Below, one piece after another: positions 176 to 62,154 of a stretch of 64,000 bases of DNA. Position numbers and translations under genes: made by a program. The stretch lies in assembly GCA_002269645.1 (NCBI GenBank), contig NIVC01001975.1, positions 152,820 through 216,819 of the forward strand. Direction: 5' to 3'. Below the pieces are notes generated by a model. That model had not been told where the DNA came from, did not search any database, and worked only from the letters and a program-made list of their open reading frames with translations. Source of the DNA: Macrostomum lignano (Eukaryota). Within the stretch, counting starts at the first letter, position 1. The number at the start of each line of letters is the position of its first letter.

Positions 176-1983
176 ATGCGAGGACAGAGACAGCAGAGGC
201 CCTACAGAGACCTTGGTGAGTTTGGCTACCTGCCTTCTTCAAATCAGCATGCGGGTTTCGAGATAAGAGCGGAGGATCGAACAAGCTCTTCTGAATCAGT
301 AGACGAATGCAGGCTCGGCAACTCTTCGGAGCAAGAGCTGTCGAAGGATCTTGGAAGATGTTGCGTCGAGTTGAAATTCCTACCTTCTACGGGGAAAAAC
401 AGCAGTACGAGGCGTGGAAGGCAGCGTTCATGGCTTGCATCGATAGGGCTCCAGCAACACCAGAGTTCAAACTGCTGCAGTTGCGTCAGTATTTGCGTGG
501 ATCAGCGCTGAAGGTGATAGAGCACTTGGGTCATTCGGCTGCTGCCTATCAGGCGGCCAAGGAGAGATTGGAGCGTGAGTACGGCGGCAAGCGACGACAG
601 TTGGCGCACTACTTGGAAGAGCTAGATAGTTTTCCACCCGTGAAGCAGAATAGTGCCGAGGAGCTGAAGAAATTCGCAAACATCCTCGATGTGGCTGTAA
701 TTAATTTGGAAGAAGCTGGTAAGAACTCCGAACTTAGTGATGGACTGCTTTATGCTAGATTGCAAAAAAAGTTACCAGAGCCGATGGTCGCAGCATTTCG
801 ACGATGGATCTTCGAGAAGGCGAAAGCAGAAGGCGTTAGGACCCTTCGAGAGTGGGTTTTGCGTGAGGCAGAGTTCCGAACTGAGGCAGCAGAAATTGTG
901 TACGGGGTGGCCGCATCGAGTCAGGAGCAACCAAGAAAGGACAGCAAGCAGAAGGCCTTCCATGTAGCGCAGCTAAGCAAGAGCTCAAGCAAGGGGAGCT
1001 ACTCCTGTGTAGTCTGCAAGGAGGCGCACGATCTATGGAAGTGTCCCGCATTCGGGAAACTGTCGTCTGAGAACAGATGGAAGGCTGCTCAGGAAGCCAA
1101 AGCCTGTTTCCGCTGTCTTGGCCATGGTCACACCGGTATGAACTGCCGACGAGGTCGAAAGTGCGGCGTTGATGGATGCACCAAATCCCACCATCGTCTG
1201 CTGCATTCGACAGCAAGGTCGGAATCGAAAGAGAAGTCAGAAGTCAAAGCCGGTGCTGAGCAAGAAATGCAGTCGAAGCCGAAAGCTGCAACCGTGACAA
1301 TGGTCGCTAGAGAAGCCAGTGCGGTTTCACTTCGAACGGTTCCGGTCATTCTTAAGGCGAATAGGCGAGCGGTGAAGGTCAATGCCTTACTTGATGACGC
1401 CAGCACAAAGACCTATTTGAATACGGCGATAGCATCCAAGCTTGGCCTGCACGGCAAACAGGAATCAATGCAGGTAAACGTGTTGAACGGACAGGTGGAA
1501 ACCTTCATAACAGCACCAGTGTCATGCACCTTGGAGAGTACTGACGGCCAAATAAGCAAGGAGATTACTGCGCTGACGGTAGATAGAGTGACAGGGAACA
1601 TGGAAGTAGTAGATTGGCAAGAATTGGCGTCGAAATGGTCGCACTTAGCAAACATTCCGTTTCCAAGAATGCAAACGCCAGCGGAGGTTGACTTGCTGAT
1701 CGGAGTCGATCACCCAGACTTGCATGCATCACAGTTGGAAGTGACCGGCGACCCCGGAGATCCGCAAGCGCGGCTGACACCTTTAGGTTGGACTTGTATC
1801 GGTAGAGTTGATGGAGCTTCGGAGCACGCGTTGTTTGCAAACACGTTCTTCAGCCGAGGCGGGTCTGAGAATCTAGCGCCACTGTTACGCCAGTTTTGGG
1901 AAGTAGAAGAGGTGAAAGCATCGAACCATCTTCATTTACTAATGCAGAGCAGCTCGCTTTGGAAAGAACTCGATCATCGCTAA
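176..1983 (+). CDS. gag: BEL/Pao Gag-protease region (5' partial; 1-nt frame break near 352; continues into pol near 1911)
   Basis: Knuckles CVVCKEAHDLWKC, CFRCLGHGHTGMNC and CGVDGCTKSHHRLLH; protease site ALLDDAS. ORFs 176-511 and 307-1983 join as ...KDL(W)KMLRRVEIP if one T is restored. Confidence 0.9.
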
Positions 1984-4900: not shown

Positions 4901-5210
4901 GGTGTTCAACCCAACCAAGCGGTGGCGCTACGTGCAGCAGCTGGTGCAGTCGTTTTGGCGGCGATGGCTCCGAGAGTGGCTGCCCGGCCTCGGTGCGAGA
5001 ACCAAATGGCGGCGAGAGCAGCCCGACCTCAAGCCCGGGGACGTCGTGCTGTATGTCTGTCCGGACAGCCCTCGGGGTCACTGGCCTCTGGCTCGAGTGC
5101 TGGAGGTGTACCCGGGTCGAGACGGCCATGTTCGAGTAGCAAAGGTGCAGCTGGCGGACAAGGTTCTGACGCGGCCAATCAACAGACTGTGCCCATTGAT
5201 TACTGATTGA
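1896..5210 (+). CDS. pol: BEL/Pao Pol: reverse transcriptase, RNase H, integrase
   Basis: RT STYMDD; RNase H LHCFVDASEKAYGAVCYLR; integrase HH..CC zinc motif and D(DFGGP)-D(SDNGTNF)-E(GGVHES); no in-frame stops over 1104 aa. Confidence 0.95.
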   Translation: MGSRRGESIEPSSFTNAEQLALERTRSSLKFVDGRYQVGIPWKPDVTFNDSNFEMAIRRLANTEKRLRKDPDLAKQYQDVISRYENVGYIRRVPEHEQQPANRYHLPHFPVVRMDKATTKVRIVFDASAGGEESLNSLMLAGPKLQKDLVDVLLRFRRHPVAVACDISEMYLQIAIAPEDRAAHSFLWRDMDPTKVPQTFEFNRVVFGATSSPFLAQFVTQEHAKKLKQEFPSAAETVLQSTYMDDCLDSKKTDSEAIQLYQELSQLWERAGMHARKWISNSRALLACVAPEDRVAEVSLDGQPLPVSKTLGVVWKSEDDEFTFVADSELRPVKSKRDLLKRLASVYDPLGLIAPFTAQAKILLQELWCSGLDWDEAPDEALQKRIQAWCADLTKLNCFRVYRCLQFSYVPTQSQLHCFVDASEKAYGAVCYLRCKYTDASISVRLIAAKSRVAPIATMSIPRLELMAAVIGLNLAVKIAKALVMNNKDAVFWSDSMNVLFWIRGRGRFFKPFVANRIGEIQQTTDPNQWRHVPTACNPADLLSRGATITQLAEDQKWKNGPEFLHHDDYKWPSTRLERPADLETKGSAKDSVPSEAVMCATMVTSEQRKHQVERLDPSRFSSWMKFLRVNAWISRFANNCRFEPQYQTRGELQASELEDAELRIIKDVQQDAFSTELSALRKNKSVSESSKLARMHPRLDPSGVLRSESGLQLAEALPVSIRSPIILPKCHHVTELIIKHHHEKAYHAGTNQVLAAVTARFWIPAAREAIRAWEVKCAECRRRKAQPASQLMAPLPPSRLEPMRAFTKVSIDFGGPFLTKQGRGRVRQKRYLALFTCMATRAVHLEMAYGLDASSFLNALFRMINRRGQVLEIFSDNGTNFVGADRELKELCKSMDKNALQSRTSHVPIKWHFNPPAAPHFGGVHESMIKSAKRAINAILRSAEVSDEQLVTAFTGAESLLNSRPLTYQSSHPGDDPVLTPAHFLYGHVGGQLAPEISADEVFNPTKRWRYVQQLVQSFWRRWLREWLPGLGARTKWRREQPDLKPGDVVLYVCPDSPRGHWPLARVLEVYPGRDGHVRVAKVQLADKVLTRPINRLCPLITD

Positions 5211-44190: not shown

Positions 44191-44279
44191 ATCAAGTTTT
44201 GATAATCAAATCAATACTTCACCAGTCCTTGACTCTTTGACTCAGATTCGCTTTCAGAACAACATTGGCCGAGCATGTT

Positions 44280-44470
44280 AGTAGTAGATAAAAATCGGAC
44301 ACGGAGGGTTTTTTTAAATACGAAAAATGTATGGTTGGTACATGGGCAATATACATGGGAGATAGCCGAAACTTCGGACAAATTTTCAACCCTCTCCCGA
44401 TAGCAACTGGGGCGCAATTTTCCTCTCTTCCACAAAGCGCAGACCTCCAGTTTTTCTTTCCCTCGCCGCC
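44280..44470 (+). repeat. Left terminal inverted repeat
   Basis: Reverse complement of 61543-61734; first 68 bp identical, then about 10 differences. Confidence 0.95.
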
Positions 44471-44521
44471 GACGCTAGTTGTTAAATTTCTAAAACAACT
44501 GTTCGTAAAGATAAATTGCCT

Positions 44522-44700
44522 CCAAATCGTTCCAAATCGAAATTCCAGGTAAAGCATGCCACAGAACACAATGTCCAATCAAAAGGTCAGGAAGATAAAA
44601 CTGACAACTTTTAAGTGAAACAGCTGGCCCCAAATCGCTCCAGATCGAAATGTCAGGGAAAGCAAGCCCCAGAACGCAATGTTCAATCAAAAGGTCAGGA
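44522..44700. repeat. Subterminal imperfect direct repeat (two ~71-bp copies, 108-bp period)
   Basis: CCAAATCG(T/C)TCCA(A/G)ATCGAAAT...CAATCAAAAGGTCAGGA at 44522 and 44630. Confidence 0.8.
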
Positions 44701-44862
44701 TGTTTGAACTTACAGCTTGATATGGCTTAAAAGCGTTTCGGGAGAAGTAAAGAATTCAGACGATTTGGGTGAACTATCCGGAAACCTTTTCAAAAAACAG
44801 TATATAAGGAAGTGGTGTTTTAGAATCTTCCGGAGCAGACCGAGGGAGACTAACCGACCATC

Positions 44863-46043
44863 ATGGCGTTTTTCGCTAAAGAAGAAGTCTTAAGCGCACA
44901 GCAGTTTGTTTCACCCGAGACGCGGCCTACAATCCATGTCGAGCCAGCTTCTTCGCCCAAGTTTGCCAACAACTGTCAGTTCCGCGCTCTCTCTTGGACT
45001 CCGGTGGGCGACAAGCACGAGAAACTACCGATTCTACTGCAGTCTCAACAGCCGATTCTACTCTTTCGCGGTTTGCACCGAACAGACAGCGGTGCGGGCA
45101 CAGAACACTCGGTCAACGAAGGACGAGAAGCTATCGCACTTGGTTTTCAAGCCAAGGGCATTTGCCCTCAGCTGGTTTCAACTTTGAGGTAAATACAATC
45201 CTATTCTTTGGTTTGTGAACCGCATCCCAGGTTAGAAATTAAAGTTTACTGCAATTTTCTTACGTTGCTATCTGTCATATTCTTTCCAGAGCGATCGAGA
45301 AGTCGATCGAGAAGGCACTTCACCAGCAATCTGACCGAATGGGGCTCATTAGACTCACTAAGAGTCCTGACGCGAGCGGTGCCAACCCAATTACCTGGAT
45401 CGGCATCAAGCCCAACTATCCATGCACAACATTCTCCACCAACGAGGGCAGCCGCACAATCCAAGAGGTTTCGCCCCGAGACTTCAGCGAGCGAAGCGGA
45501 CTCTACCAGATCACGGTGCAAATCACTTCGCTCTACCTTCCGAAGGGGGCGCCAGCCTGGCGACTTGCCGCCTGCATCCGATCTCTGGTGTGGCTGTCTG
45601 ATGGAAACACTACCGGCCTGATAGGGAACCTGCAGGGACCTCTGTCCGAGTATCGGATTGTGCATGAACATAGCAACGAGGAGAAAATTTCAAGTTTGCC
45701 TACTCCAAGTCTTCTCACTGCCACCGGCAAGAATCGAAGTGAGAGCAGCACCACGCCGAAGAAGAAGAGGAGAACCTCATCACCACCGCCGCCACCAAGC
45801 AAGAATTCGAAACGTCCAAGGCCTGCCGCGAGCGCTCCTAAGAACCAGCCTGCTTGCAAAGGTGGACCAGCAAGCGATCCCGACTGGGCTGAAGTACCGG
45901 CAGTCAAGAAGCTCGTAAGTTCGCCTACGGTTCAGCCGGGAAAGCGAGTCGCCTCTAAGGATCTCTCGTACGCCAAGCAGCTAGCTGGAGCTGAAGCCTC
46001 GAGCAACAGATCCTCCGATTCGGATTGCAGTCTGTTCGCTTAA
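44863..46043 (+). CDS. Spliced Maverick gene (exons 44863-45188 and 45290-46043; 359 aa), putative ssDNA-binding protein
   Basis: Donor AG|GTAAAT and acceptor TTTCCAG|A join ORFs 44863 and 45339 in frame across a 101-nt intron. The beta-strand pattern GLYQITVQITSLYL...WRLAACIRSLVW and disordered basic tail suggest an OB-fold SSB; the function is inference. Confidence 0.6.
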
Positions 46044-46471
46044 GCTCCAACTGGTGTCATTGCTGCGAGGGACTTTTTCAGCATGTCTGACGTCTCGCAC
46101 TATCATAAACTTTAACTATTTCTGGCAAATTTTTAGTAGCAAGGACGAGCACCTGAATATTCGTAAACATTTAAATAGATCGGCTCGCCTTGGATTCAAC
46201 TTCCTCACATGTTTTAAAGCATATAGCTCGGGTTTTCTAGCCTATCCTTTTAAACGCAAATTGTTATTTTCATTAGATGCTCTACGTCGTTTACATCGCT
46301 TTTCTTCTCGTCAATCTGCTGCTTGGCTTTTAGACTGCAAGGCTGGTTTACTCGCCTTAGTGCTTATCTTTAGCAATTCGCCTGCCTACCTACTGCTATC
46401 CGCGAGACATTTAGCCTGACTGCAATAGCGCTTTTGCTAACTACCCGACTTATTATTATTATAATAAACTG

Positions 46472-47076
46472 ATGACCAAGTTCTTTGTCTTACCACGACT
46501 TATTCAGACTTATTTCTGGTTTGAAATTTTCAGAGAATTGTTCAGAGTGTCGGGAGCGCACAACTGGATTTGAGCGGTTCCGATGGACTAGATTTATTTC
46601 AGCTTCAGCTAAAACTGCTAAAAAGCGGATTCAATTGCAAACTCTATTTTGGACGACCCTCTATGCTGAGAGTTGCTACGAGTGCTGGCTATACTATGCA
46701 AATCTATCCTGGTGGAAAAATTACAATTTTTCGATGTGCATCAAATCTCAAATTAATATCCACACTCCTGGCAATTCACAATTCTGTTTTTAAGCTGGAT
46801 TTTAATTCAATACGTATTCAAACCTCAACATATGTTGGTGAATATGAATTTTATAGCGCAACAGACAGATTTTTTATGCTAAAATTAAGAATTGGATGTT
46901 TCATTGGTTTCACTGTGAGCTACGATGCAGAAACTTTTCCTCAAGCCGTGCAATTGCGCTGCAGCTGGAATAAACGTTTGTTTGCAAATTTGTTTTGTTC
47001 AAAAAAGCTGGTCATAATGGGCCCAGCAAATGCCCAAGAACTCTCCTCATTTTATCATGTATTGAAACATACTTAA
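46472..47076 (+). CDS. TATA-binding protein (TBP)-like protein; ATG 46472 is in frame if one T is restored near 46530
   Basis: Two-repeat match to the TBP core: RIVQSVGSAQL / GLDLFQL / QIYPGGKITIFRCAS versus QLQNIVSTVNL / KLDLKTI / LIFSSGKMVCTGAKS, and IRIQTSTY / SYDAETFP / NLFCSKKLVIMGPAN versus FKIQNMVG / SYEPELFP / LIFVSGKVVLTGAKV. The frame is open from 46525. Confidence 0.75.
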
Positions 47077-47150
47077 AGCTTTCGATTCCTAATTCAACGC
47101 ATAATATCTTGCAGTCAATCGATCCTATATCCAACAACTAGTAATCTGAA

Positions 47151-47830
47151 ATGGCAAATATCGTTTTTGCACCGAGCGTCTTCATCCTTGAAGGACTGTT
47201 GGGAGCGGGCAAATCCACCGTACTGCATAATTTGGCACTACGATCAAGACTAGACAACTGGAGGAAGCGTGCTCATTTTCTGCCGGTGCAAATTTTTGCC
47301 GCAGCGAGGGTCCTTTTTGCGGCGCCCTGGAGAAGTTTTATTCTGGTGAACTGTCAGCATTTGCTTTTCAAACGTTGGTGTACCAAGAGCTGATGGGACG
47401 CGACATGGCCGCAGTTCAATTTGCGACAAACGAGGTGAAGGAGGGCCGCCAGCCGATTGATCTGATAGTGATGGACCGACACCTACGATCCGGAATTGCC
47501 TTTTCAAATCTGTTGTACAAACAGGATCGGTTGACTAACTTTGAACTGAATCTGATGATTCGGTTGTATGAAATGTTTACCAACTGCTTTCAATCTGATG
47601 CCACACTAATCTATCTGGACATCACACCCGAGCTTGCACTGGAGCGCATTCAACAGCGAAACCGAGGTGGGGAGCAGCACATTACACTGAGTTATCTTGA
47701 ACAACTACGGGAGGAGCTGCATGCACAGTTTGCTCTTTTCAAAACTGTGCACAAGATCCGAGTGCTGCCAGAGACTACTCTTGAGGATGTTGTGGACACA
47801 GTTTGCAAGATTATTAATCCTTCTGGCTGA
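47151..47830 (+). CDS. Deoxynucleoside kinase family protein (one -1 frame break between about 47232 and 47320)
   Basis: P-loop ILEGLLGAGKST; LEKFYSGELSAFAFQ; MDRH; IYLDITPELALERIQQRNRGGEQHITLSYL lid region. Confidence 0.9.
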
Positions 47831-48065
47831 GTGACTCGCGTTTTGACTCGCCTTAATTGCTACATGAAGACAATCTGAAATGTGATTTAATAAAACAGTT
47901 GGCCCTTGATTATTCGATTATTCCTTGACCAGCATCAAGGAACAAGTTGGGAATTCCCTACTTGTTGGCCATGCCATCAAAGCGCGTTCGTTCTTTTTTA
48001 ATTCCATACTGCATTTTAGTCCTAAAAATCATCAAAATTCTTGCATTATTTGTTTAATATTAACC

Positions 48066-48834
48066 ATGATAAAAGCACGTTTTTTAAAGAAAAAAAAATT
48101 GTTATTCCAGCCAAGAGCTCGCTGCCTGGTTTGTCGAAAGACCTTCCGCAATGTGGCTGCGCTGCATGCTCACTCGCATGGAGAATGCTTTGCGCCAGAT
48201 CGACTGTTGGAGGGGCCATTCGAGGAGCTTCAGGCGCACCCACCAGACGGTTGGTCTGTTCACCTGGAAGAAAGTGCGCATCAGGGGCGAGCCAACTTTC
48301 TGCAGTTTGTTCCTAATTCCGCTGAATCTCCATCGCAAACATCCGCCACCACCGACGACCTTCTACCTGCCGACAAGCTGAACCAGCTGCGCGCCCCAAT
48401 CTATTGGCTTTTCAATATGACTTTACAAAAAGGACTGATGTTGAGAACATGTCTGCATGTCAAGGTGAAGCTGTTTCGGATGCTGGCGGATTTGCGGCAA
48501 CACCCCGATCTCTCAACAGGCGCTTTAAATTCACCAGCAACTGAAATAATCTCTGCATATTTCAACAGTCACATGGTTACAATTTCACTGGATAAAGAGG
48601 GCACCGGTACTGGCGAACTGTCTGAGGAGAGTTTCAACGACTGGTTTATGCGTGCAATCACCGAAGTGACAAGCAAAATTGACAGCTTCCAGAAACGTGG
48701 CAGTGGTTGGAAGTATGACAGCATTGAACAGCTTGACCTGATGCTATGCCCCTATAGGAAGTCTCGTTCTCGGCCAAGCTACAACCCGGGCAGTAGGAAT
48801 TCCACAGCGGCAGAGCAACAGCTGGGCGGTGGTA

Positions 48835-48869
<35 letters not shown>

Positions 48870-51800
48870 GCCAGAACATTTAAAGTCCCGTTGTCGGTTG
48901 GATGCAAGAGAGGAGCCGTAATATTTTTGAAGCCAAACAATAATCGGCAGCCTAACTGCTTCAAGTATGCAATCGTAGCAAGCATCTTTTATGCCCAAGT
49001 GAAGCGTCCTCATTTGAAGAGCAGCTATACAGAACATTTGCGAGAATTGGATTTTGGAACTAAATTACAAGTCGGATCAGCGAGACATGCCAAATGCTCA
49101 TATATTAAATTTTTGAACAAAAATCCAGGGTTAAGTTTGCGTGTATTCGTTTGGGATTACGAAGCAAAGACTGCCGTGCATTACTTTTCGCGCCACTGTT
49201 CCCCGGAGACAGCCCGCTTCATGGCAAACTGTTTGTTCATCCCACCATATGGCAAATTCAAGCTGGGCCACTACATGCCTGTTCGTAATTTGAACTCACT
49301 TCTAAGCTGCCGAGGCAAACGACGGCGTGTCTGCCCAACTTGCCTGGCTCCGTTTTCGGAAAAAATATCATGGGACTTCATTCTGAACGAGCACCAATGC
49401 ATCGGAGGGTGCGAGAGCCAGTCCTCGCTCCGCTGGATGTCCGAGCCGCTGCCACAAATACGGGAGGTGCGCAGGCCGCCAATTGAGAAGATGCCTCTGC
49501 CGGAGAATGCTAGTCTTGAGTTTACCGAACATGCTGCAAGGCTGCCGGCGCTGTACGTAGTTTATGCCGACATGGAATGCCTATGTGCACCGCCGGACGC
49601 CAGCGCTCCACATGTGGGAGCCTCTCAAAAGATTCGCGAGATCCACAAACCGCTTTGCATCGGTTATCGGGTGGTGGCCTGTCCCGGAGTTGAAAGCCGG
49701 CTGCCTTCACTATATGGCGAAAGGTCCGCCTGTTCGGTTATCTATTCGCGGCCCAACGGTGGAGATGATTGCATTGGGCTGTTTTTGATCAAGCTCCGCC
49801 AGCTAGCAAGCGAGATCTACCGACACGCCAAGGATGAAACATATGTTCCTTTGCTTAAAAAATATCTTCATCTGACGGACCGTGTCGAGAAGCGGCGCCA
49901 CAAGCATTGTCAGCTATGTAATCGCGTTTTTGAGCTTGATGAACGCCAAGTCCTGGATCACGATCATCTTACTGGCCTGCCTAGGGGAGTTTTGTGTGTC
50001 AGCTGCAATCGCAAATTGAGCTTGAATCGCCACCGGCTGTTGGTCTATTTTCACAACCTGTCGGCATATGATGGCAAGTTTATTGTTCGCCAAGTTTACG
50101 AAACCTTTTCCGGTGAAGAAGTTAAACTTTATGTTTTGCCTGAAAATCGCGAGCGATTCAAAACGTTCTCTATCAAGTTCAAGCTGCCTGCTGCTGATGG
50201 GCAGCACCACGTTTGGTTTGAAATCTGCTTCAAGGACACTTTTGCGTATTTACCAACTAGCCTAGCAAGTCTAGCTGAACGCCTGCTCCCTTCTCAGCTG
50301 GTGCACACAAGCAAACTATTGGAGCAATACCCGAGACTACGACCGGAGACGTTGCAGCAGAAGGGAGTTTTTCCCTATTCGTTCCTTGATCGAATGGACA
50401 AATTGGACAGCGTAAAATCTCTGCCAGCAAAGGAGAGGTTTTTCAATAGACTAACAATGCAGCATTGCTCTGACGCCGACTACGCTCGAGCCAAGGCCAG
50501 CTGGGAGGAATTCGGCTGCCACACTCTGCGTGACTACACTACTGCCTACCTGCGATTGGATGTGCTTTTGCTCTGCGACGTGTTTGAAAATTTCAGAAAT
50601 AATGCAATCAAAGAGTATCAAATTGATCCCGCTCATTTTCTTGGCTCTCCAATGTACAGCCTGGCGGCGTGCTTGCTTCAACTTGCAGAGCCAATTCAAC
50701 TCTTCACTGATACAGCATGTATGCTGAAATTGAGAGCTCTGTGCGCGGCGGTTTCAGCTTTGGGACACGTCACGTAACCACAGCAAATAACTCGTTGGTT
50801 TCGCTCATTCGTCAAGATTTGGACAGGGACGAGGGCAACTTTGCGAGCCTGAGGGCAAATGCACCAGAAAACACCTTTTTGGTTTACTTGGATGCAAACT
50901 CGCTCTATTCTAGTTGCATGGTACAACCTCTACCATACAAGAACTTTCGTTGGCTTTCTGCTCGAGATGTGAATCGCATACCATGCGATAACACCCCCGG
51001 CGCAGGCTATTACCTCGAAAATCCGCAAGTGAAGAGTCAAATGCTAGACTGGCTGACGAAGTTTTGTTCTGAGGAGCGAGGAGCTTATTTCACAGTCGAT
51101 CTGCATTATCCCGAGTTTCTACACGATAGCACTGCTGACCTCCCACTGGCGATTGGGCACGAGATTGTGAGAGAAGATCGGCTGACGGATCAAATGCGGC
51201 AAGATTGGACAGCACTTCAACGACAACTGAACCCGAGCGATATGCCTCTGCCAGCTGTTACCAAGACGTGAAGGCATTCAAGAGCCCTGCGCGCAAGCTC
51301 ATCGGTTCTGTCGAGCACAAGCGCGAATATGTGTTGCACCACCGTGCATTGCGACTTTACCTCGAGTTGGGGATGCGAGTCACAAGGGTCTATCGCGTCA
51401 TCTGTTTCACCGAGAAGCCAATATTACGCTCTTACATTGAGCGCAACATTAGCCGACGAATAGAAGCCAAGACGGAATTTGAACGTGATCTGTTCAAGCT
51501 ACTCAACAATGCTTTGTTTGGCAAGTTTCTGCAACGTGTTCGTGACCGATTGTGCTTCAAGATGTGCACCGACGCTGCAAAGCTGGAGTCCTATGTCAGC
51601 ATGGAAAGCTTCCTAGATGTTATCATTTACAACGAGAATTTGGCGGGAGTTAGTCTATCTCCTCGTCAAGTTTTGCTTAACAAGCCAATTATCATTGGCG
51701 CGTCAATTCTGGACATTGCCAAAACTATGGTTTACAATTTTTATTACAACCATGTTCAGGCTCATCATTCGCTTTCATGTGCACGCGTTCTGGCAGGCGA

Positions 51801-52344
51801 CACCGACAGTCTGATGATGGCACTGGTGATGCGCAGACCTGGTGACACGCCCTATAATTCATTGTTCAAGGACCTGATCGCTCAAGGACTACTTGATACC
51901 AGCAACTATCCGCCGGATCATGCCCTTTATTCTACCCAACACAAGGGTCGGCTGCTTGCATGGAAAGACGAATTTGCTGGAGCGGTTCCAATCGAGTTGG
52001 TATTTTTACGACCAAAGAACTACTCTTTTCTCTACGTTACCGATACGATTCGGCAACTCTCTCGATGCAAAGGCGTGAGCAAGCAAGTGGCTCGCACGTT
52101 CAAGCACACGGCCTACCTCTCGGTCTTGGAGAAGAGAAGAGTGATGTATGCAAGCTTCGCTCGAATTGCTTCTAAGAAGAAAGTTGTTTTTCTCATGGAA
52201 CAGAAGAAGCTCGCGCTCGGATTTTTTGATACAAAGCGCGCTTGGACAACCCTCCTTGCTTCTCAACCATTCGGACATTGGCGGCTGCGAGCAGCATGCG
52301 AAACGCAGGCAAGAATTACTTTCTTGATACTGTTTAGCATCTAG
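48066..52344 (+). CDS. polB: Protein-primed family B DNA polymerase with N-terminal zinc finger, terminal protein, OTU-like domain and endonuclease VII insertion (-1 breaks near 50716 and 51262; start and last exon uncertain)
   Basis: ExoI YADME, ExoII HNLSAYDG, ExoIII YLRLDV; polymerase motifs YLDANSLY, KLLNNALFGK, AGDTDS; EndoVII CQLC...DHDHLTGLPRGVLCVSCN; NCFKYA and GHY of the OTU-like domain. Confidence 0.96.
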
Positions 52345-52673
52345 ATGATACAGTAGCATCTTTAGCTTAATATTTTTTCGTTTTTTTAATTTCAGGCAAC
52401 AATCGATTCGGAAAAGGAGGACTATTCGATGGATGAAAATTGACTTTTGCTTTGTACATTAACACCATATATGCCAGGCATCGTGTGTAGACTAGTCATC
52501 ATTTTAGCATGGTGTCCTATCTCTTGAGGTTCACTCATTTTCGTTGGCTGACACAGCGCTCTAGAATAAATGTGTATTGAATGACTAACGAACGTGATTG
52601 GTTTTTCGCTCCTTCTTTTGCAAGAGTATATAAGCCCAGATGTTGAGACTTTAGTTTAACTTTTGTCCGAAAA

Positions 52674-53543
52674 ATGCAGTCGTCCTCTTCGCCTAGCCAA
52701 CCGAGTTTAAGAAGTAGGAAAAGCCAATTATCGAAACTGTTCATTTCGCCATATACACAAACGAGTGGTTTGTGCAATTTCCCAGTCCCGCCACCAACTC
52801 CCACTCCCGAGAATGCAAACAAAAAATTTATTTTCAATGTTTCAGCCAGTACAATGCAGCGCCAGCAGCAAGAATCTCTAAATCCAAGTGACACTAGCAG
52901 CTGTAAAGACGCAGCGCCAGTTCCGCTACGCCTAAATCCCGATTGGTGTCAACAATACCTCGCAGGCTCACCACCGATCGAGAAAAATCTAATTGTCCGC
53001 CTTCTCAGCAATCATGCTGCGGTTCCGGCCAGACAGACAGAGGGCTCTATCGGGTATGATCTGACTGCAGCCGAGACCAAGACCGTCCCTGCGCAGGGAC
53101 GAGCGATTTTTGATATTGGGATTTCAGTCCGAGTACCGGCTGGCACCTATGGAAGAATCGCTGGGCGCTCTGGTCTGTCAGCGTTTCACGGAATCACGGT
53201 GGGCGGCGGAGTAATTGACCCAGACTACTGCGGACGAATTACGGTGATTCTCTTCAACCACGGCATACGAGACTATCATGTTCGCATCGGCGAAAGGATT
53301 GCGCAGCTGGTTCTGGAGAAGGCGGAAATCGCTCCGGTCAAGGTAGAGAACTACACTATCGCTCGCGGGAAGAAGCGTGAAGCGCTGGACAACCAGCGTC
53401 AGTTGTCAGCGTCAGCATCGTCAGTTGCGGAGACCGCCAAGGTTGATGAAGAAGAGAAGATGAAGAATCTGGCGGACGCAATCGTTCAACAAGAAGCTTG
53501 CAAGCAGCGGGGCGATTCAGGCTTTGGCAGCACGGGGATGTAA
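52674..53543 (+). CDS. dut: dUTPase with N-terminal extension and an insertion before motif V
   Basis: GSIGYDL, GRSG, GVIDPDYCGRI, GERIAQLV and RGDSGFGSTG: all five trimeric-dUTPase motifs. Confidence 0.95.
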   Translation: MQSSSSPSQPSLRSRKSQLSKLFISPYTQTSGLCNFPVPPPTPTPENANKKFIFNVSASTMQRQQQESLNPSDTSSCKDAAPVPLRLNPDWCQQYLAGSPPIEKNLIVRLLSNHAAVPARQTEGSIGYDLTAAETKTVPAQGRAIFDIGISVRVPAGTYGRIAGRSGLSAFHGITVGGGVIDPDYCGRITVILFNHGIRDYHVRIGERIAQLVLEKAEIAPVKVENYTIARGKKREALDNQRQLSASASSVAETAKVDEEEKMKNLADAIVQQEACKQRGDSGFGSTGM

Positions 53544-53609: not shown

Positions 53610-53824
53610 TTCAAGAATAAACAATTCTGCATGCATATAAAGACTATAAGTTATGCTCCAAAATTGCAAGGAACAAATATATCTGTATCTGAATCCTTAA
53701 CGCATATAAGCTATCTTTTATTCAAGAATAAACAATTCTGCATGCATATAAAGACTATAAGTTATGCTCCAAAATTGCAAGGAACAAATATATCTGTATC
53801 TGAATCCTTAACGCATATAAGCTA
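53610..53824 (+). promoter_or_regulatory. Exact 104-bp tandem duplication (111-bp period) holding four TATAAG and two TATAAA motifs, upstream of the virion module
   Basis: Copies at 53610-53713 and 53721-53824; TATAAG at 53645, 53705, 53756 and 53816. The promoter role is inferred. Confidence 0.7.
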
Positions 53825-53875
53825 AACTAAATTATTTGCTATTGGTTTTCAAGTCTTTACTATTTAAGCAACAAA

Positions 53876-54369
53876 ATGTACGCATCAAAACGCAGAAAAG
53901 GTGTCTGCAAGCAAAAGAGGAAATCTGTCCCGAATCGGAAATCGCGCTCTAGCAAACGTGTTCAGAGAGGATCTGGGATTGTAAACTGGTTAATCAATCA
54001 CCTACCATTTGAGGTCCACCTCCCTGGTTACAATTTTTGTGGACCGTAAGTGAGCCAAACTTTTTCATGATTTAGTTTGACACTGTTCTAACTAGGAAGT
54101 ATTAAATTCGCTCTTAATTAAGGGGCACGCGGTTGCGAAAACGGCTTGCGGAAGGACAGCGAGGGAAAAACCGGTTGGATGATCTTTGCCTACTACATGA
54201 TGTTGCATACGAAAAGAGCTCGGACACAAACTCTCGTCTGGAAGCTGATCGGTTGTTAGAAGCCGGAGCTAGAGAGATTATAAGCGATCCGAATACTGGG
54301 TGGGGAGAACGCCTTGCTTCAAAATTCGTGGCTAAGGTGATGCACGCTAAGCAGCGATTGGCAGCCTGA
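53876..54369 (+). CDS. Spliced parvovirus-VP1u-like phospholipase A2 (exons 53876-54045 and 54123-54369; 138 aa)
   Basis: Splicing CC|GTAAGT...TTAAG|G rebuilds HLPGYNFCGPGTRL (Ca-binding loop) ahead of LDDLCLLHDVAY (catalytic HD); basic N-terminus. Confidence 0.92.
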
Positions 54370-54375
54370 ACACAA

Positions 54376-55083
54376 ATGGAAACTTTCAATCTGCAGTTGG
54401 CACACGATTCCTCAATCATCTTGGCCGGACCATCAAACTCTGGCAAAACTGAATGGGCGCTGCGTTTGCTGCGCGAACGAAATTTGTTATTTAAGCAAGC
54501 GCCAACGCGTCTCGTGTGGTGTCATGGCACGGACCTGAGTCCTGGTGAACAGCACCGCATTCGTTCAAGCTGGGAGGAGGGCGGGAGCGGGCAGCATAAT
54601 TTGATTCGAGGATTTCCGCTCGAGCTTATCTCTCAACTTCGCCCACACGATTTGCTGGTTGTCGATGATCTCCAGAGTGAAATGGCCAAGTCCCCCGAAT
54701 TTACAGCAATTTTTACAAAATATGCCCACCACACACCACTAACTTGTCTCTATTTATGTCAGAATCTCTTTCATCGTTCTGATGCTGAAGCGCGCTCGCG
54801 AAGCCTCTCTGCTAGCTACATCTGCCTGACCCGAAATATTCGCGATCGAACGGTTGTTCAAAGCCTAGGGAAGCAAATGTTTCCAAAGAGGAGCAACTTT
54901 CTAGTTCGTGTCTATGAAAACGCAACTGACAATAGGCCCTATTCATACCTGTTTATTGATCTGCGACAAGAAACTCCCGACTTTTTAAGGCTTCGTACTG
55001 GTATTTTCCCGGGTGACAAACAGCTTGCGTACACCTCTGGTAAAAGCAACTCTGTTTCACTTGATTTTATAAGCAATCCATAG
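54376..55083 (+). CDS. A32/FtsK-like genome-packaging ATPase
   Basis: Walker A GPSNSGKT, Walker B LLVVDD, LYLCQNLF motif. Confidence 0.95.
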   Translation: METFNLQLAHDSSIILAGPSNSGKTEWALRLLRERNLLFKQAPTRLVWCHGTDLSPGEQHRIRSSWEEGGSGQHNLIRGFPLELISQLRPHDLLVVDDLQSEMAKSPEFTAIFTKYAHHTPLTCLYLCQNLFHRSDAEARSRSLSASYICLTRNIRDRTVVQSLGKQMFPKRSNFLVRVYENATDNRPYSYLFIDLRQETPDFLRLRTGIFPGDKQLAYTSGKSNSVSLDFISNP

Positions 55084-55116: not shown

Positions 55117-56106
55117 ATGAGTTTTTATGTGTTTTTGCCTTCGAATGACAAGAGTTATGCAGATAATTCACCCAGCGAGTTTCGAGTCCGGCTAAAGGAT
55201 CCACTGAATGTTGGAACGCGCTATGAAGTAGCACTGGTTGAGCTAATCTGCGGAGGGTTTCCTGCTTCGGCTGCAAAGGACTCTTCGTTAGATAAAAAGG
55301 AAATTGTCTACTATCAAAGAGACGTGCAAACGTATTTTTCTTCAACAGCACCTCGATTTGTGAAGTTGTGGTCCCAAGCAAACTTGGAGGCATATCTTTT
55401 GTGGAGGCAAGCGGAGGCGGGCTCGGGAGCAAAAATCACATATCAGTGGTTCCTGCGAAACGGTGGTAGCCGATCGGTTCATGTGGAAATTCCAATGACG
55501 TTTCTCAGTACATTTGCCCTAGACGAGTGGGTTGTGGTTCGAGCGGGGATAGGCAATGAAGAAGGTGAATGGAGTGAGGCTTCTCTACGGACTTTGGAAG
55601 AGGTTTCAGCGAAGATGGATAGATTGAACGATAAGTATACTATGATTTTTAATTTTGTTCTGGACCCATATCATGCTGTGAAATTTTTGGGCGATGGAGA
55701 ACGCATGAAATCTCTACAAAGTGGTTCAGTGGACGACGCTCTGAAAAAAAATGTTTGGAAGCTTGTGCACCCGTGGACATTTACCATACAATATTTGCCT
55801 GGTGAGCCGTCCGGTGCTGGGGACGACAATAGCAAGCAGTATATGCATTGCTACACTGACATCATCGACTATCAGCCCGTTGGAAGCACATCTGTTCCAC
55901 TGTTGCGCGTCGTGGATTTGCAGCGGAAGGGACACGAAGTAACGCATGAACATAGTTCCTTGACAAATCCTTACTATGTTGGAGTGAATCGTCAGGGCAT
56001 CAGCGAGATTTCAATTCGACTGACTGATCAGCGTGGCAAAGGAATACAATTTCAACCGGGCTCGCATACTGTGGCGGTGCTCCATTTTCGTCCTAGAATT
56101 GACTAG
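55117..56106 (+). CDS. Minor capsid (penton-like) protein
   Basis: N-terminal FYVFLPSN...NSPSEFRVRL...YEVALVEL and C-terminal CYTDIIDYQPVGSTSVPLLRVV, typical of Polinton minor capsid proteins. Confidence 0.85.
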   Translation: MSFYVFLPSNDKSYADNSPSEFRVRLKDPLNVGTRYEVALVELICGGFPASAAKDSSLDKKEIVYYQRDVQTYFSSTAPRFVKLWSQANLEAYLLWRQAEAGSGAKITYQWFLRNGGSRSVHVEIPMTFLSTFALDEWVVVRAGIGNEEGEWSEASLRTLEEVSAKMDRLNDKYTMIFNFVLDPYHAVKFLGDGERMKSLQSGSVDDALKKNVWKLVHPWTFTIQYLPGEPSGAGDDNSKQYMHCYTDIIDYQPVGSTSVPLLRVVDLQRKGHEVTHEHSSLTNPYYVGVNRQGISEISIRLTDQRGKGIQFQPGSHTVAVLHFRPRID

Positions 56107-56163
56107 GTGACTAATTTATAAGCAAACTTTGGGGTGTTGAGTATGATTTGACCAATAATTTAA

Positions 56164-56607
56164 ATGCCTTTATTAACAGAAAAAGCTAGGAAGAGCCTCT
56201 GCTCGCTTTCTAAGTGTGCCATTTTATTGCAGAGTGCGGCCCGCTTGAAAGATAAGCACCAACGCCGCCAATTTCTGCAAAGCTTGACTCTGACGGAAGT
56301 CCGCTGTCTACTTGAACTGTTGCTGAATATTGTCAAGCGGCGCGTGCCGATAAAAGCCTGCGATCAGCGCCGATTGCAAAAACACGCGCCTGTGATACGC
56401 AAGCTGCTGAACGGTGGAAAGAGTCTAGTTGAAAGGAAGAAAATTATTGTTCAAAACGGAGGCTTCCTTCCTTTCCTGGCGCCCATCATTGCTGGCATCA
56501 CCTCGGCCTTGCCTGCCATTGGAACAGCGCTAGGAATTACGTCCGGAATTGCGGGCACAGCAGCTGGAGCAGCAACTCTTGTGCGGAATATTCAAAACAA
56601 GAAATGA
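56164..56607 (+). CDS. Conserved Polinton virion protein with QNGG|FL cleavage-like motif and hydrophobic tail
   Basis: Basic helical N-half, then IVQNGGFLPFLAPIIAGITSALPAIG; this pattern recurs in Polinton small genes. Confidence 0.7.
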   Translation: MPLLTEKARKSLCSLSKCAILLQSAARLKDKHQRRQFLQSLTLTEVRCLLELLLNIVKRRVPIKACDQRRLQKHAPVIRKLLNGGKSLVERKKIIVQNGGFLPFLAPIIAGITSALPAIGTALGITSGIAGTAAGAATLVRNIQNKK

Positions 56608-57437: not shown

Positions 57438-57653
57438 ATGGCTTCTTTGGGCCAGCGATTTTTTCGTTTTCTGGTGGAAATCTTTCGCGTTTGCTTCCAT
57501 GGATCGCTTTGCGGTGAATTGATTCAAGATGAAGTAGACAATGTGACAGTAAACCTGCGGACAAATATCAAATGCTGCACTAAGCAGAGCAACACCATTT
57601 CGTTCGAGAATGTCGGAGCAGAGGACGAAACAGCGGTTGCGGGCGCGAACTAG
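57438..57653 (+). CDS. Possible small orphan protein (71 aa)
   Basis: Fills the gap before the integrase; TATAAA at 57413; no recognisable motif. Confidence 0.3.
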   Translation: MASLGQRFFRFLVEIFRVCFHGSLCGELIQDEVDNVTVNLRTNIKCCTKQSNTISFENVGAEDETAVAGAN

Positions 57654-58812
57654 TTTGAACGACGCGGCTGCAAATGAACAAGACGCGTGGAAATTTCTGA
57701 GCGAGAATTTTTTTGACTTGGAAAATCCAACTTCATTTGGAGGGAACAAGGCGGAGCTGGTTCGCGCTGTACGAAAGAAATTCGCAGGACTTACCTTTGC
57801 TGCTGCAAAAAAGTTTGTAGACAAATGGGCGCGGGGAACACGCGAATATAACTTATTTCGCAAGGCGCGCCTGCGATTTCCCACGCCCCGGATTAGCGTG
57901 CCTCCAACAGCAAAATTTCAATTTCAAATTGACCTTGCTGACTTGCAGCAGTACAAGGACATCAATAAAGGTTATCGCTTTGTTCTCGTTTTGATTGATT
58001 GTCTAACACGAGTTGTTCGTCTTCGACCGCTGTACACAAAAAAGCCCACAGAAGTTAGTCAAGTGTTGCGTGCGATTTTCAACACCGGTTTCAAACCAAA
58101 GTATTTGCAGGGGGATGCTGGGATGGAGTTTTTAGGACGTGCAACACAAACGATGCTGCGTGAAGAGGGAGTTCACTTTTTTGTAAGCCAAAGCACATAC
58201 AAGGCCGCAATGGCTGAACGAATCATTCGAACTCTGAAGGAGCGGTTGTCGCGCTATTTCAGGTCAATTAACTTGCCACAGTGGTATGACATTTTACCAA
58301 AGATGGAAAAAAATCTAAACCAAAGTGCGAACCGTTCATTGTATGGCCTAACGCCACAAGTGGTGCAAGCAGATCCCCATCTGCAGGGAATTCTGTGGGA
58401 TCAGATGTTTGGTGCAATACCGACTTCGCCTCGTTATGTGCCTGGCGATTGGGTTCGAATCGCGCGACGCAGAGGAACGTTTGAAAAGGGTTACTCGACT
58501 GTTTGGAGCAATGCTGTCTATCGAATAGGACGAGTCCGCGAAGGAACCCCGCCCATGTATGTGCTCGAGGATCCAGAAGATGACTTCGAACCGCTCAAGG
58601 GATTTTTTAATGAGGCAGAGCTTCAGCAAGTTGAGGGACCTGAAAACGACGTGAATGAAATAGAGAAAGTTCTTCGAGTGGAGAAGCTGCCGGGCGGGAA
58701 TCGACGCTATTTTGTAAAATGGAGAAATCTACCAGAATATCGGGCGCAGTGGCTGAAGAAACAAGAGCTGGACGAAGAGACCCAGAAACTGTTCAAACGT
58801 GTCTATAAGTAA
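57610..58812 (+). CDS. int: Retroviral-like (rve) integrase with C-terminal chromodomain
   Basis: DDE triad FQIDLAD / LQGDAGMEF / AERIIRTLK; chromodomain IEKVL...YFVKWRNLPEYRAQW. Confidence 0.96.
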   Translation: MSEQRTKQRLRARTSLNDAAANEQDAWKFLSENFFDLENPTSFGGNKAELVRAVRKKFAGLTFAAAKKFVDKWARGTREYNLFRKARLRFPTPRISVPPTAKFQFQIDLADLQQYKDINKGYRFVLVLIDCLTRVVRLRPLYTKKPTEVSQVLRAIFNTGFKPKYLQGDAGMEFLGRATQTMLREEGVHFFVSQSTYKAAMAERIIRTLKERLSRYFRSINLPQWYDILPKMEKNLNQSANRSLYGLTPQVVQADPHLQGILWDQMFGAIPTSPRYVPGDWVRIARRRGTFEKGYSTVWSNAVYRIGRVREGTPPMYVLEDPEDDFEPLKGFFNEAELQQVEGPENDVNEIEKVLRVEKLPGGNRRYFVKWRNLPEYRAQWLKKQELDEETQKLFKRVYK

Positions 58813-58851: not shown

Positions 58852-59330
58852 ATGGATCCCGTGTTTCGTTTCTACGCGGGCCCGAACCATGAACAGGTGG
58901 TGGACGCGGAAGTTCCTCTTCGCGCTCAATTCCCGTATACGAGGGCTACGGATTCTTGTCAAGCCTTGCGAATCGTTTGTTTTACCCTGTTCTGCGCAAT
59001 ACTGGCAAAGATCTGCTGCGACGAGGATTGACCTACCTTGCAGATAGCGATGAAGAATCCCGAAAGGCAAAGAAGAGAGGAGGGGGATTCGACTATGGAG
59101 TAATTGGGAACGAACCGGCTGCCTCTCCCCCAAAGAGAAGGAAACATGGGCGTTCGCGTACCAACAAGATGCCAGCTACTATAAGCAAGGCGGGGCGCGG
59201 ACGAGGAAAACTATCAAGGACAAGCAAGCAGAAGGGTCGTGTGTGTGCAATCAAGAACCGGCAGGAAAAAGCTTCGTGGCAAGCGGCACAAGAAACGAGG
59301 CAAAGCAAGCGCTTCAAAGAGTCTGTTTAG
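58852..59330 (+). CDS. Basic core (adenovirus pVII-like) protein; -1 break near 58944
   Basis: Restoring one G gives ...PYTRGYG|FLSSLANRLFYPVLRNTGKDLL, the Polinton RGxG-amphipathic helix pattern, followed by an R/K-rich tail. Confidence 0.7.
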
Positions 59331-59345
59331 TCTGTTTAATAAAGA

Positions 59346-60670
59346 ATGAACCAGCTGCTGGGACCGGATGTTGTCGCACTGAAGAGTGAATTGTCTCTTT
59401 TTGACCCCTCTCCGGTCCAGTTTAGTGTTTTGGAGAGTCAGTTTACGAACATTCAGCCGCAGCATGGCCTCGCTGCTGGTGCTCCAATTGAATTCGAAAT
59501 TCCTCCGGCTGGGGATTTGTATCTCGACTTGCATGAGACTGCGCTCAATGTGAGTTTTCGAGTGGTGGATTCGGAAAACAAAAGCATCGATGCTGCAAAA
59601 AACTTTGTGTGTCTGAACAACCTGCCGATTGCCTCGCTGTTTCAAGATGCGCAGCTTAGCATTGGAGACAGCGTTATCGAGGGCGGAAGCTTTCTCTATC
59701 CATACAAGAGTATGCTGCTGACGCTGCTTGAGTATGGAAGCATCGCTCAGAAGGCTGCATTGGTGCCCTGGGGATTTTACAAGGATACTGCGGGAGAAAT
59801 GGATTCTGCTACGGATGCAAATGTCGGACGCAAATCGCGCGTGGCGTTGATTGCTGGAGGGAGAACTTGCAGTCTCTCAGGACCGTTGTTCCTTGATTTG
59901 TTCCGTCAGCCACGTTTCTTGCTGTCAAAGACAAACTTGCGACTGAAGTTGATTCCCTCCGATCCGAAGTTTGTGCTCAGTGGAGCCGGCGTCGGTGCAG
60001 AACCGCTGAAGGACTATTTGGTGGTTATTGAGCGTGCAGAGCTGCGAGTTCATTATGTGCTGCCATCGCCTAGTGTTCTGGCTGCCCATGCACAGGGACT
60101 CAAGAAGCATAATGCGCTTTACCCGCTGAACAGCCTGCAAATGAGCACCTTCACAATTCCGCAAGGAACCTCCAGCTACACGCGCGAGAATATGTTCCAG
60201 GGAGGCGTGCCGAAACTGCTGCTGGTCGCTTTTGTGACCAACAAAGCTTTCAACGGTAGCATGGATACGAATCCGTTCAACTTTCGACATGCAAACGCTT
60301 CATGCATTGCTGTGTTTGTGAACGGAGAGTCAGTTCCTTCGCGCCCCTGCAAGTAAATCTGGCGAAGGAGAATGGTGAGGTGGAGTACAATTGGTTGCTA
60401 CAGCAACTGGGCCTGTATATGCAGAGCAGAGAAATTGGCTTTAGAATGGACGAGTATGCTCGAGGATATGGCATCTTTGCGTTCAATCTCTGCAGTGAGC
60501 TGGGAGTGGGTGTTGGAACACAGCTATACAAAGAGGGCAGCGTGCGCTTGGAACTGCGGTTTAGCACCGCTACTGCAAGTGTCTACAATGTAATTGTTGG
60601 AGGGCTCTTTGATAAGCAATTGCAGCTGACGGAGTTTCGTGACGTTGTGCCTGGCACCGCCTGGAAATGA
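59346..60670 (+). CDS. Major capsid protein (double jelly-roll); -1 break near 60346
   Basis: KSELSLF...PIEFEIP...YLDL N-terminus, NPFNFRH, VPSRP(L)QVNL across the break, GYGIFAFNL and GSVRLELRF C-terminus; about 441 aa when joined. Confidence 0.93.
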
Positions 60671-61215
60671 AAAGCGGCGTCCCGAGCGGATTGACAAACA
60701 TTTATCTGGCCGCAGTATCCCGCAAACTGCAACGCATCTACCGGCACGCCGTGTTTTTGGGAGTCTACTCTAGCAACTCTCTGCCTTTACTGCCCGCAAG
60801 AAACGGTGGCTTGCTTGACACTCAAAGTTATTTTTTAATTGCAAACACAGACACTAGTAACCTACCTGGCCGGCATTGGATTGCTATTTGGGTTGGACCT
60901 GGTCCGATTGGGGCCGCGGGGCGACGAGGAGAATTTTTTGACCCACTAGGACTGCAACCAATGCCTGAATTTTCGCAGTGGCTGAGCCGCGAGTGTGGAG
61001 GCACTTGGAGTTTTACTCGCTTTTCTGTTCAGCATCCCTCCACGGGACATTGTGGCGTGTGGGTTTTGTTTTATCTGTATTTTAAACTTGCTACTAGAGA
61101 ACCTCTGATACATTTTATCAACTTTGTTTTGCGCGGATATCGCCGTAGTTCTGTTTCGTTCCGCGCTGCTTTTCATGCTCTACGCAGTTTTCAGCTGAAA
61201 ATTCTTAATCCCTAA
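60667..61215 (+). CDS. Adenain-like cysteine maturation protease
   Basis: NTD...PGRHW, FFDPLG and QHPSTGHCG: His-Asp-Cys triad and oxyanion Gln intact. Confidence 0.95.
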   Translation: MKSGVPSGLTNIYLAAVSRKLQRIYRHAVFLGVYSSNSLPLLPARNGGLLDTQSYFLIANTDTSNLPGRHWIAIWVGPGPIGAAGRRGEFFDPLGLQPMPEFSQWLSRECGGTWSFTRFSVQHPSTGHCGVWVLFYLYFKLATREPLIHFINFVLRGYRRSSVSFRAAFHALRSFQLKILNP

Positions 61216-61542: not shown

Positions 61543-61734
61543 GGCGGCAAGGGAAAGAAAAACTGGAGGTCTGCGCTGCATGGAAGAGAGGAAAATTGCG
61601 CCCCAGTTGCTATCGGGAGAGGGATGAAAATTTAGCCGAAGTTTCGGCTATCTCCCATGTATTTCGGCCCATGTACCAACCATACATTTTTCGTATTTAA
61701 AAAAACCCTCCGTGTCCGATTTTTATCTACTACT
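61543..61734 (-). repeat. Right terminal inverted repeat
   Basis: Ends ...ATCTACTACT and is followed by the TSD CATGTT. Confidence 0.95.
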
Positions 61735-62154
61735 CATGTTCAGAACATTTATTGCGTGATTAGCCCTATATCGATTCGCAGATGAGAAGATAAAACATCA
61801 AATATGATTCTCAATACAATAAAATAAGCTCGCGAATAAAATAAAATGATTGCCAATAAATGAGCAAGTCTGCAGCGAAGGATCATTGATGGTTTCATAC
61901 AATCTGTTCTCTACTAGTAATAAATCATATAGGATTAGTGTACTAATCTAGCAGTTAAGCTCTGCGCGACTTGTTGAAAAAATGCAAATTAGCCAGAAAA
62001 TGAACATAAAATATCTGTTACAAAGCCGGGCTTCCAGAGATTCTCCTTGTACCATGCGGCGTCGCTGGTTGTCATGCCAACCAGTATTGTTCGCTTCCGT
62101 TCAGGCAATGAACAGTTGCCATAGGGTATCTGCGGGGTTGAAGCAACAGAGCAA

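Follow-up and report, generated by a model that had tools for sequence, protein, structure and literature searches.

Maverick/Polinton elements are 15-20 kb long and are recognized by terminal inverted repeats (TIRs), AGT-rich ends and a 6-bp target duplication. For vertebrate Mavericks, the available portions of PMC8097293 list eight core genes, none of which encodes a TATA-binding protein (TBP), and report no introns. A TBP-like gene has nevertheless been labelled in an element with an adintovirus-like PolB (Starrett et al. 2021, PMC8502044, Fig. 5 legend); this legend belongs to a section on non-animal datasets, and the accessible text of that paper gives no residues, promoter or splicing for it. 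An earlier note on the DNA analysed here had placed TBP outside the standard Polinton gene set. That view holds against the vertebrate core genes, as far as the accessible text of PMC8097293 goes, but not against the label in PMC8502044, and a Maverick-borne TBP gene is therefore not in itself new. The accessible text of PMC12220804, PMC10675990 and 10.1101/2022.07.28.501842 holds no Polinton TBP. Neither a matched late box nor splicing of the TBP exon was found in the open full-text literature searched. Among viruses, TBP mimics are encoded by beta/gamma-herpesviruses: in the portions of PMC12529657 available, KSHV ORF24 is a 752-aa protein that acts in a six-protein complex, binds a variant TATT box (TATTWAA), and is also polar at L114 and L205. 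Viral TBPs of this group (ORF24/BcRF1/UL87) carry an N-terminal domain that binds Pol II.

The window, i.e. the whole 64,000-nucleotide stretch of Macrostomum lignano DNA that was analysed, contains a complete element of 17,455 bp with TIRs, AGTAGT ends and a 6-bp target duplication. Together with a protein-primed family B DNA polymerase (pPolB, PF03175, E 1.7e-11) and an integrase (rve, E 2.4e-4), these ends agree with the Maverick/Polinton context proposed in the earlier note. The element is organized as follows:

44274..44279, plus strand: target-site duplication CATGTT, 6 bp (second copy at 61735-61740)
44280..44470, plus strand: left terminal inverted repeat, beginning AGTAGT
44863..45188, plus strand: orfA, exon 1 of the first gene (identical spliced protein P0155 in UniRef)
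45189..45289, plus strand: intron 1, GT..AG (joint in contigs of runs X5 and X8)
45290..46043, plus strand: orfB, exon 2 (beta-rich domain, basic/Pro-rich linker, acidic tail)
46534..47076, plus strand: TBP-fold coding exon with no ATG of its own (window copy frame-broken near 47048)
47151..47830, plus strand: deoxynucleoside kinase (PF01712), frame-broken in the window copy
48111..52344, plus strand: protein-primed family B DNA polymerase (PF03175) with an endonuclease VII-like domain, frame-broken in the window copy
52674-53543, plus strand: dUTPase (PF00692)
54376-55083, plus strand: packaging ATPase (weak match, Pox_A32, E 0.0036)
55117-56106, plus strand: putative minor capsid/penton ORF, labelled from size and position
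56164-56607, plus strand: Adeno_PX-like ORF (PF05829, E 1.7e-5)
57610..58812, plus strand: retroviral-type integrase with chromodomain (rve, E 2.4e-4)
59346-60670, plus strand: putative major capsid ORF, labelled from size and position
60667..61215, plus strand: adenovirus-type cysteine protease (weak match, Peptidase_C5, E 0.038)
61543..61734, minus strand: right terminal inverted repeat

Neither the ORF at 55117-56106 nor that at 59346-60670 has a database match. Reading the polymerase breaks as introns was rejected, since run contigs show short length changes there relative to the window. Elsewhere in the window, a BEL/Pao-type retrotransposon with gag-protease and RT-integrase frames occupies positions 307-5210.

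The first gene is spliced: intron 1 is supported by the contigs of X5 and X8, which we guess to be RNA runs, and UniRef models from three lineages contain it as well. For these three lineages UniRef lists the spliced orfA-orfB product among host gene models (P0153-P0157), whose names (YDG, OTU, PTB, FYR, HORMA domain) lack Pfam support. No relationship between orfA and orfB was detectable. The orfB domain has no match in Pfam, PHROG or PDB; it resembles NCLDV/giant-virus DUF5871/DUF2738 proteins (10-29% of cluster members), which we take to be ssDNA-binding proteins. Such a function is possible for orfB and is offered as a lead only, its structure model being poor (pLDDT 45, best Z 3.2).

The frame downstream of orfB runs from stop to stop over 46525-47076 (plus strand, 183 aa), with no ATG before 46663. 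In single-sequence searches the window protein alone has no Pfam and no PDB match, and its top matches in the ESM Atlas are all TBP clusters (0.96). When the window protein is aligned with 15 relatives (alignment A1), 13 of the 16 family members match PF00352 (best E 2.4e-8), and of the 37 PDB matches of the family profile, the best 35 are TBPs without exception (the best at E 2.5e-9; the first unrelated entry at E 0.66). Structurally, an AlphaFold2 model (pLDDT 84) was built for L003, a near-identical sibling copy, from alignment A1, which contains no cellular TBP. This model matches TBP both in Foldseek (E 6e-9, TM 0.71-0.75) and in VIA-align, where 168 residues align at Z 16.6 and rmsd 2.9 and the best non-TBP reaches Z 8.3. 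The TBP fold of this frame is settled, and the two-repeat saddle first proposed from the letters alone is borne out by profile and model alike. A predicted complex of this domain and a fragment of host TFIIB (L050) scored 0.00 and speaks neither for nor against an interaction.

Both ends of the gene required correction. The start formerly assigned to the ATG at 46473 was rejected, being out of frame with the TBP fold; the coding exon opens instead at the acceptor at 46532-46533. Toward the 3' end, the window copy shares the frame of its five near-identical siblings only up to residue ~175 (near 47048); in the siblings this frame has 205 codons. The break is absent from siblings and run contigs, and because the contigs of X1 and X5 differ in length from the window both here and at the polymerase breaks, it is probably an assembly error.

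Residues were assigned by MAFFT alignment to host TBP. The C-terminal repeat keeps F190, P191 and F207, as well as the acidic stirrup (E186→D, E188 kept); E188 is invariant, and position 186 is D in ten genome copies and N in three library relatives. In the N-terminal repeat, the Phe positions have changed to P and Y (F99→P, F116→Y, with a register at F99 uncertain by 1-2 residues because HMMER sets the gap elsewhere). Two of the four intercalating Phe (F99/F116/F190/F207) are thus kept, with P and Y in all 13 clade members shown. Both central Asn are replaced (N69→Q and N159→T in the window protein, Q/L and T/S across the clade), as are T124 and T215. The C-terminal Phe pair with its stirrup, the Pro and Tyr of the N-terminal repeat and the loss of both Asn had all been noticed by eye in the earlier note and reappear in this alignment. 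In TBP, it is the N-terminal repeat that recognizes the 3' half of the box, and host cofactors use the basic helix H2; here H2 carries 1-3 K/R in four lineages versus six in host TBP.

Conservation is concentrated on the DNA-facing surface. Among the 17 DNA-facing TBP positions of PMC12529657 Table 1, 10 are invariant across seven divergent sequences, versus 13 of 166 other columns (Fisher p 1.5e-6). Three of the ten are identical to host TBP (F190, P191, F207), and the other seven are unlike it (F99P, A101M, L114Q, F116Y, V122T, V161T and L205N). According to the portions of PMC12529657 available, P191 creates a preference for T at the first position of the box, in line with a C-terminal repeat that reads the 5' half. 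As judged from the alignment, the 5'-TA-reading half is kept, and the other half is rebuilt and more polar. Q114 might serve as an acceptor for the amino group when box position 6 is a G.

The genome search scored 71 matches among 80 candidates. Six Maverick lineages carry the TBP gene in this genome, at 35-39% identity to the window's lineage. Genomic neighborhoods are consistent: in 20 loci fetched with ~10 kb, the polymerase lies downstream in 20/20, orfB upstream in 17/20 and the kinase downstream in 14. The two closest lineages give dN/dS values of 0.17-0.18 in four pairs (L014/L016 versus L015/L018), other between-lineage pairs being near or at synonymous saturation, and a pair from within one lineage has a value of 0.61, based on 18 changes. 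At the level of these sequence comparisons, the gene is under purifying selection. A captured host TBP/TRF pseudogene or functionless passenger would account for the missing start codon and for the frame break near the 3' end of the window copy, but siblings and run contigs lack that break, and the family is only 18-21% identical to host TBP (L029) versus 35-39% between lineages (13-20% to a host TRF-like gene, L035). A joint clade with host TBP is moreover rejected at p-AU 0.00023 in a quick LG+G4 tree of 42 rows chosen from a larger set, and both the purifying selection and a DNA face with 10/17 invariant positions versus 13/166 elsewhere contradict loss of function. The captured pseudogene, which the earlier note had named as a possible undoing of its proposal, is accordingly extremely improbable.

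Of 150 library matches, about 40 are short TBP-like proteins that stand alone and have an RP motif at the F99 position (P0006, P0008, P0009, P0012-P0015 and others). In the quick tree they group with the Maverick family and not with cellular TBPs (SH-aLRT 97). The grouping of the family with short GRP-motif library proteins has an SH-aLRT of 97 in the 42-row tree and is weak in a 140-row quick tree, in which the split between viral-type and cellular TBPs reaches an SH-aLRT of 33 only; 14 library proteins that were duplicates or outside 150-260 aa were left out of the 140-row set. Outside this genome, no related loci were found in viral contigs (queries A1, A5 and A6) or in metagenome contigs (queries P0009 and A1).

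PF00352 has at least 150 matches in the genome (150/150 scored, of 330 candidates). A second, more numerous class of pPolB elements carries another TBP-like gene (L041-L044; G000:C100, C130, C414, C878), which has its own ATG and is convergent with the polymerase. This gene is 19-24% identical to the Maverick family and 25-27% to host TBP, also shows F99→P and F116→Y, and could share one origin with the Maverick family (p-AU 0.24). TATAAAC occurs in 3/4 of the short L041-L044 loci, and a Pox_A32 search to place the class gave no match. Within the Maverick family, one lineage (L022:3840-5246, L023:3872-5290) has a TBP frame that runs stop-free into the kinase over 469-473 codons, with the kinase ATG kept. 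A high-copy lineage (L007, L008, L009, L012, L013, L017; >20 copies score alike) has lost most of the polymerase and has no kinase, and retains the TBP exon and the TATAAGC boxes.

Two kinds of TATA-like box are found in the element:

44801..44808, plus strand: canonical-type TATA TATATAAG, 62 nt before the first gene, candidate early promoter
52629..52635, plus strand: TATAAGC, 45 nt before the dUTPase
53705, plus strand: TATAAGC, duplicate in a local repeat
53816..53822, plus strand: TATAAGC, 60 nt before a small basic ORF at 53876 (also in L009 and L048)
54279..54285, plus strand: TATAAGC, 97 nt before the packaging ATPase
55068..55074, plus strand: TATAAGC, 49 nt before the putative penton ORF (55117-56106)
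56117..56123, plus strand: TATAAGC, 47 nt before the Adeno_PX-like ORF (56164-56607)
59180..59186, plus strand: TATAAGC, 166 nt before the putative major capsid ORF (59346-60670)

A canonical TATA (TATAAAA, TATAAAT or TATATAAG) precedes the first gene in 6/6 loci with an orfA match, TATAAAA/TATAAAT being the form in three other lineages. TATAAGC is the top 7-mer after GGC repeats. Its seven copies in the element all lie on the coding strand, with none opposite (0.63 in shuffles, maximum 5 in 300), and all are downstream of the polymerase, none falling within 44280-52400. The motif was chosen after inspecting the window, and over the whole 64 kb its excess is marginal (10 versus 5.6 expected, with 5/100 shuffles reaching 10). 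Upstream of the small basic ORF lies a 111-nt local duplication (53620-53830) that carries TATAAAG, TATAAGT and TATAAGC.

Other lineages show the same arrangement. In L009, TATAAGC stands at three matching places. For four newly fetched lineages, the box was predicted in advance before the protein X-like and penton-like genes; it was present at 8/8 sites, 41-88 nt before the ATG, and at one further site before the small basic ORF. These lineages have nine copies on the coding strand and none opposite (shuffle mean 0.34, maximum 3 in 1000). L046 and L047 are closely related in the late region, so that the replication amounts to about three independent lineages in addition to L009 and the window. 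Spacer DNA around the boxes is unrelated between lineages, in a search that gave 87 matches, not all of them in Mavericks, versus 12 in a reversed control. The 14 loci that cover the early cassette hold two coding-strand TATAAGC copies, both well upstream of the first gene. The box is missing at the ATPase in 3/4 other lineages with a placed start and does not occur before the integrase; it is present before the dUTPase, usually an early gene. The altered specificity for the 3' half of the box that the earlier note had suggested thereby gains independent support at the sequence level, TATAAGC preceding late genes in five to six lineages.

The reading favored here, to which we assign a probability of about 0.65, is that of a viral late-promoter factor whose TBP fold would recognize TATAAGC and call in host TFIIB/Pol II to transcribe the packaging and structural genes. 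The remodelled TBP and TATAAGC together suggest a built-in early-to-late expression switch. Host TBP might itself use TATAAGC, because wild-type TBP has been crystallised on the G(-26) and C(-25) TATA variants (PDB entry titles 1qn5 and 1qn3). The viral TBP fold could then be a repressor or decoy, acting by autorepression of the early promoter or by titrating TFIIB, TAFs or Mot1 to dampen host or element transcription. This tolerance of single 3'-half variants, the loss of half of the intercalating Phe and of both central Asn, and the few basic residues of H2 (1-3 K/R in four lineages versus six in host TBP) speak for such a role. A pure decoy, however, does not need a frozen, non-host DNA face, and an invariant late TATAAGC versus a canonical early promoter fits two different readers; repression or titration is for these reasons considered unlikely.

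How the exon acquires its start is a separate question, on which three further features bear:

45915..45920, plus strand: phase-0 donor GTAAGT inside orfB, at the codon junction between L and VS
46463..46468, plus strand: AATAAA, 71 nt upstream of the acceptor, candidate poly(A) signal for the orfA-orfB mRNA
46520..46533, plus strand: polypyrimidine tract and phase-0 acceptor TTTTCAG, in all six lineages

In every lineage, a pyrimidine tract and a phase-0 YAG precede the first conserved TBP codon. Because one lineage has TAG at this acceptor, the TBP frame cannot extend upstream, and a gene that has no start codon must be spliced at its 5' end. In the host, according to the accessible portions of PMC8629364, GT[G/A]AG is the top donor motif, 30% of genes are leader-spliced, 15% are in operons, and the leader ends in ATG; a leader ATG can act as a start codon in flatworms (PMC12582326, as far as accessible). 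The orfB donor GT[AG]AG is found in 11/11 loci, versus 0/17 other orfB Val-Ser pairs and 3/12 in other genes, a conservation with a chance probability of about 1e-3 to 2e-4 for five lineages. The contigs of four runs, which drop rare forms, show neither a joint nor a loose end at 46533. A weak search among 7997 longer-protein candidates found no fused orfB-TBP protein, and in five database proteins orfA-orfB appears in its unfused form only. The polymerase varies at its own 5' end: at the first conserved codon (window 48104-48113, L009-L028), two lineages have a genomic ATG before it, three others have a phase-0 TTCCAG acceptor, and in one further lineage the acceptor lies a few codons upstream; in the window copy the codon follows a phase-0 acceptor. 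This swap between ATG and CAG would fit start-codon donation by a spliced leader.

Origin of the TBP N-terminus from the host spliced leader, which would give a stand-alone protein of ~200 aa, has a little under an even chance. Cis-splicing from the orfB donor, which would give a ~520-aa fusion, is only slightly less likely, and the use of both routes is rather unlikely. A fusion would also open a role in replication or integration, with the TBP fold as the DNA-bending C-terminal domain of a protein whose other part is the putative ssDNA-binding protein, the late box being unrelated. The in-phase orfB donor in 11/11 loci fits this, as do the position of the TBP gene among replication genes and the resemblance of orfB to DUF2738/DUF5871 proteins. 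However, the acidic TFIIB stirrup is kept, the related library proteins stand alone at 165-197 aa, the ATG/CAG swap at the polymerase makes leader-type starts plausible in the element, and the orfB model is poor (pLDDT 45, best Z 3.2), all of which makes a replication role improbable.

As a viral late-promoter factor, the protein could operate as follows. Early transcription would begin with host TBP at the canonical TATA box that precedes the first gene, and the transcript would cover an early cassette of orfA-orfB, the TBP exon, the kinase and the polymerase. Splicing, seen at intron 1 and presumed for the rest, would resolve the cassette, and the TBP exon would gain its N-terminus from the spliced-leader AUG, the orfB donor, or both. 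In the protein, the C-terminal Phe pair and Pro would kink the DNA and recognize its 5' TA, with the acidic stirrup serving TFIIB. With its rebuilt polar N-terminal half (F99P, A101M, L114Q, F116Y, V122T; also V161T and L205N), the viral TBP would be expected to bind TATAAGC, whose 3' half differs from that of the canonical box. Once bound, it would draw in host TFIIB/Pol II at the packaging and structural genes. What has been observed is the fold, the synteny, the selection and the position of the boxes; binding, recruitment and timing are predictions.

A TBP variant with a matching late box would offer a testable mechanism for the timing of capsid genes without an RNA polymerase of the element's own or a helper virus, and TATAAGC provides a sequence handle for recognizing late genes. 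The protein would also be a natural TBP specificity mutant, in which an altered N-terminal repeat is paired with an altered 3' half of the box, and would allow the model of TATA recognition to be tested. An exon lacking a start codon would make this a virus-like element dependent on a host spliced-leader AUG or on alternative splicing. More speculatively, and less likely than not, animal Mavericks may be viruses that time their own transcription: a widespread and so far undescribed TBP-fold family with GRP in place of F99 would redirect host Pol II toward a late box specific to each lineage, and in this host RNA processing would switch the factor on, either by a spliced-leader start codon or by fusion to a ssDNA-binding protein that ties late transcription to replicating genomes.

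Compared with cellular TBP/TRF (PF00352; 1ytb, 5fur, 1mp9), the Maverick protein shares the two-repeat saddle (Z 15-17), F190-P191-F207, the acidic stirrup (D/E186 and E188) and a basic pI. It differs in its ~20% identity, in F99→P and F116→Y, in the replacement of both Asn and of T124/T215, in the invariant L114→Q and L205→N, and in having no start codon of its own. With the herpesvirus mimics, as described in the accessible portions of PMC12529657, it shares a viral TBP fold whose DNA face is more polar and, in comparison with KSHV ORF24, a variant TATA box before late genes (by position only in the Maverick) and presumably host Pol II. The two proteins are opposites in what they retain, since ORF24 keeps four Phe and both Asn and lacks the acidic TFIIB residues. 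No partner genes were recognized in the Maverick element, and the likeness to herpesviruses is a works-like comparison only. The TBP-like genes of giant viruses and of MELD/adintovirus-like elements share the viral TBP fold, with BFVD matches at 6-17% identity. Finally, the element shares with the vertebrate Mavericks of PMC8097293, as far as that text is accessible, the integrase, pPolB, TIRs and, as weak matches or putative labels, the ATPase, protease and capsid genes, to which it adds a spliced first gene, a kinase, a dUTPase and the TBP exon.
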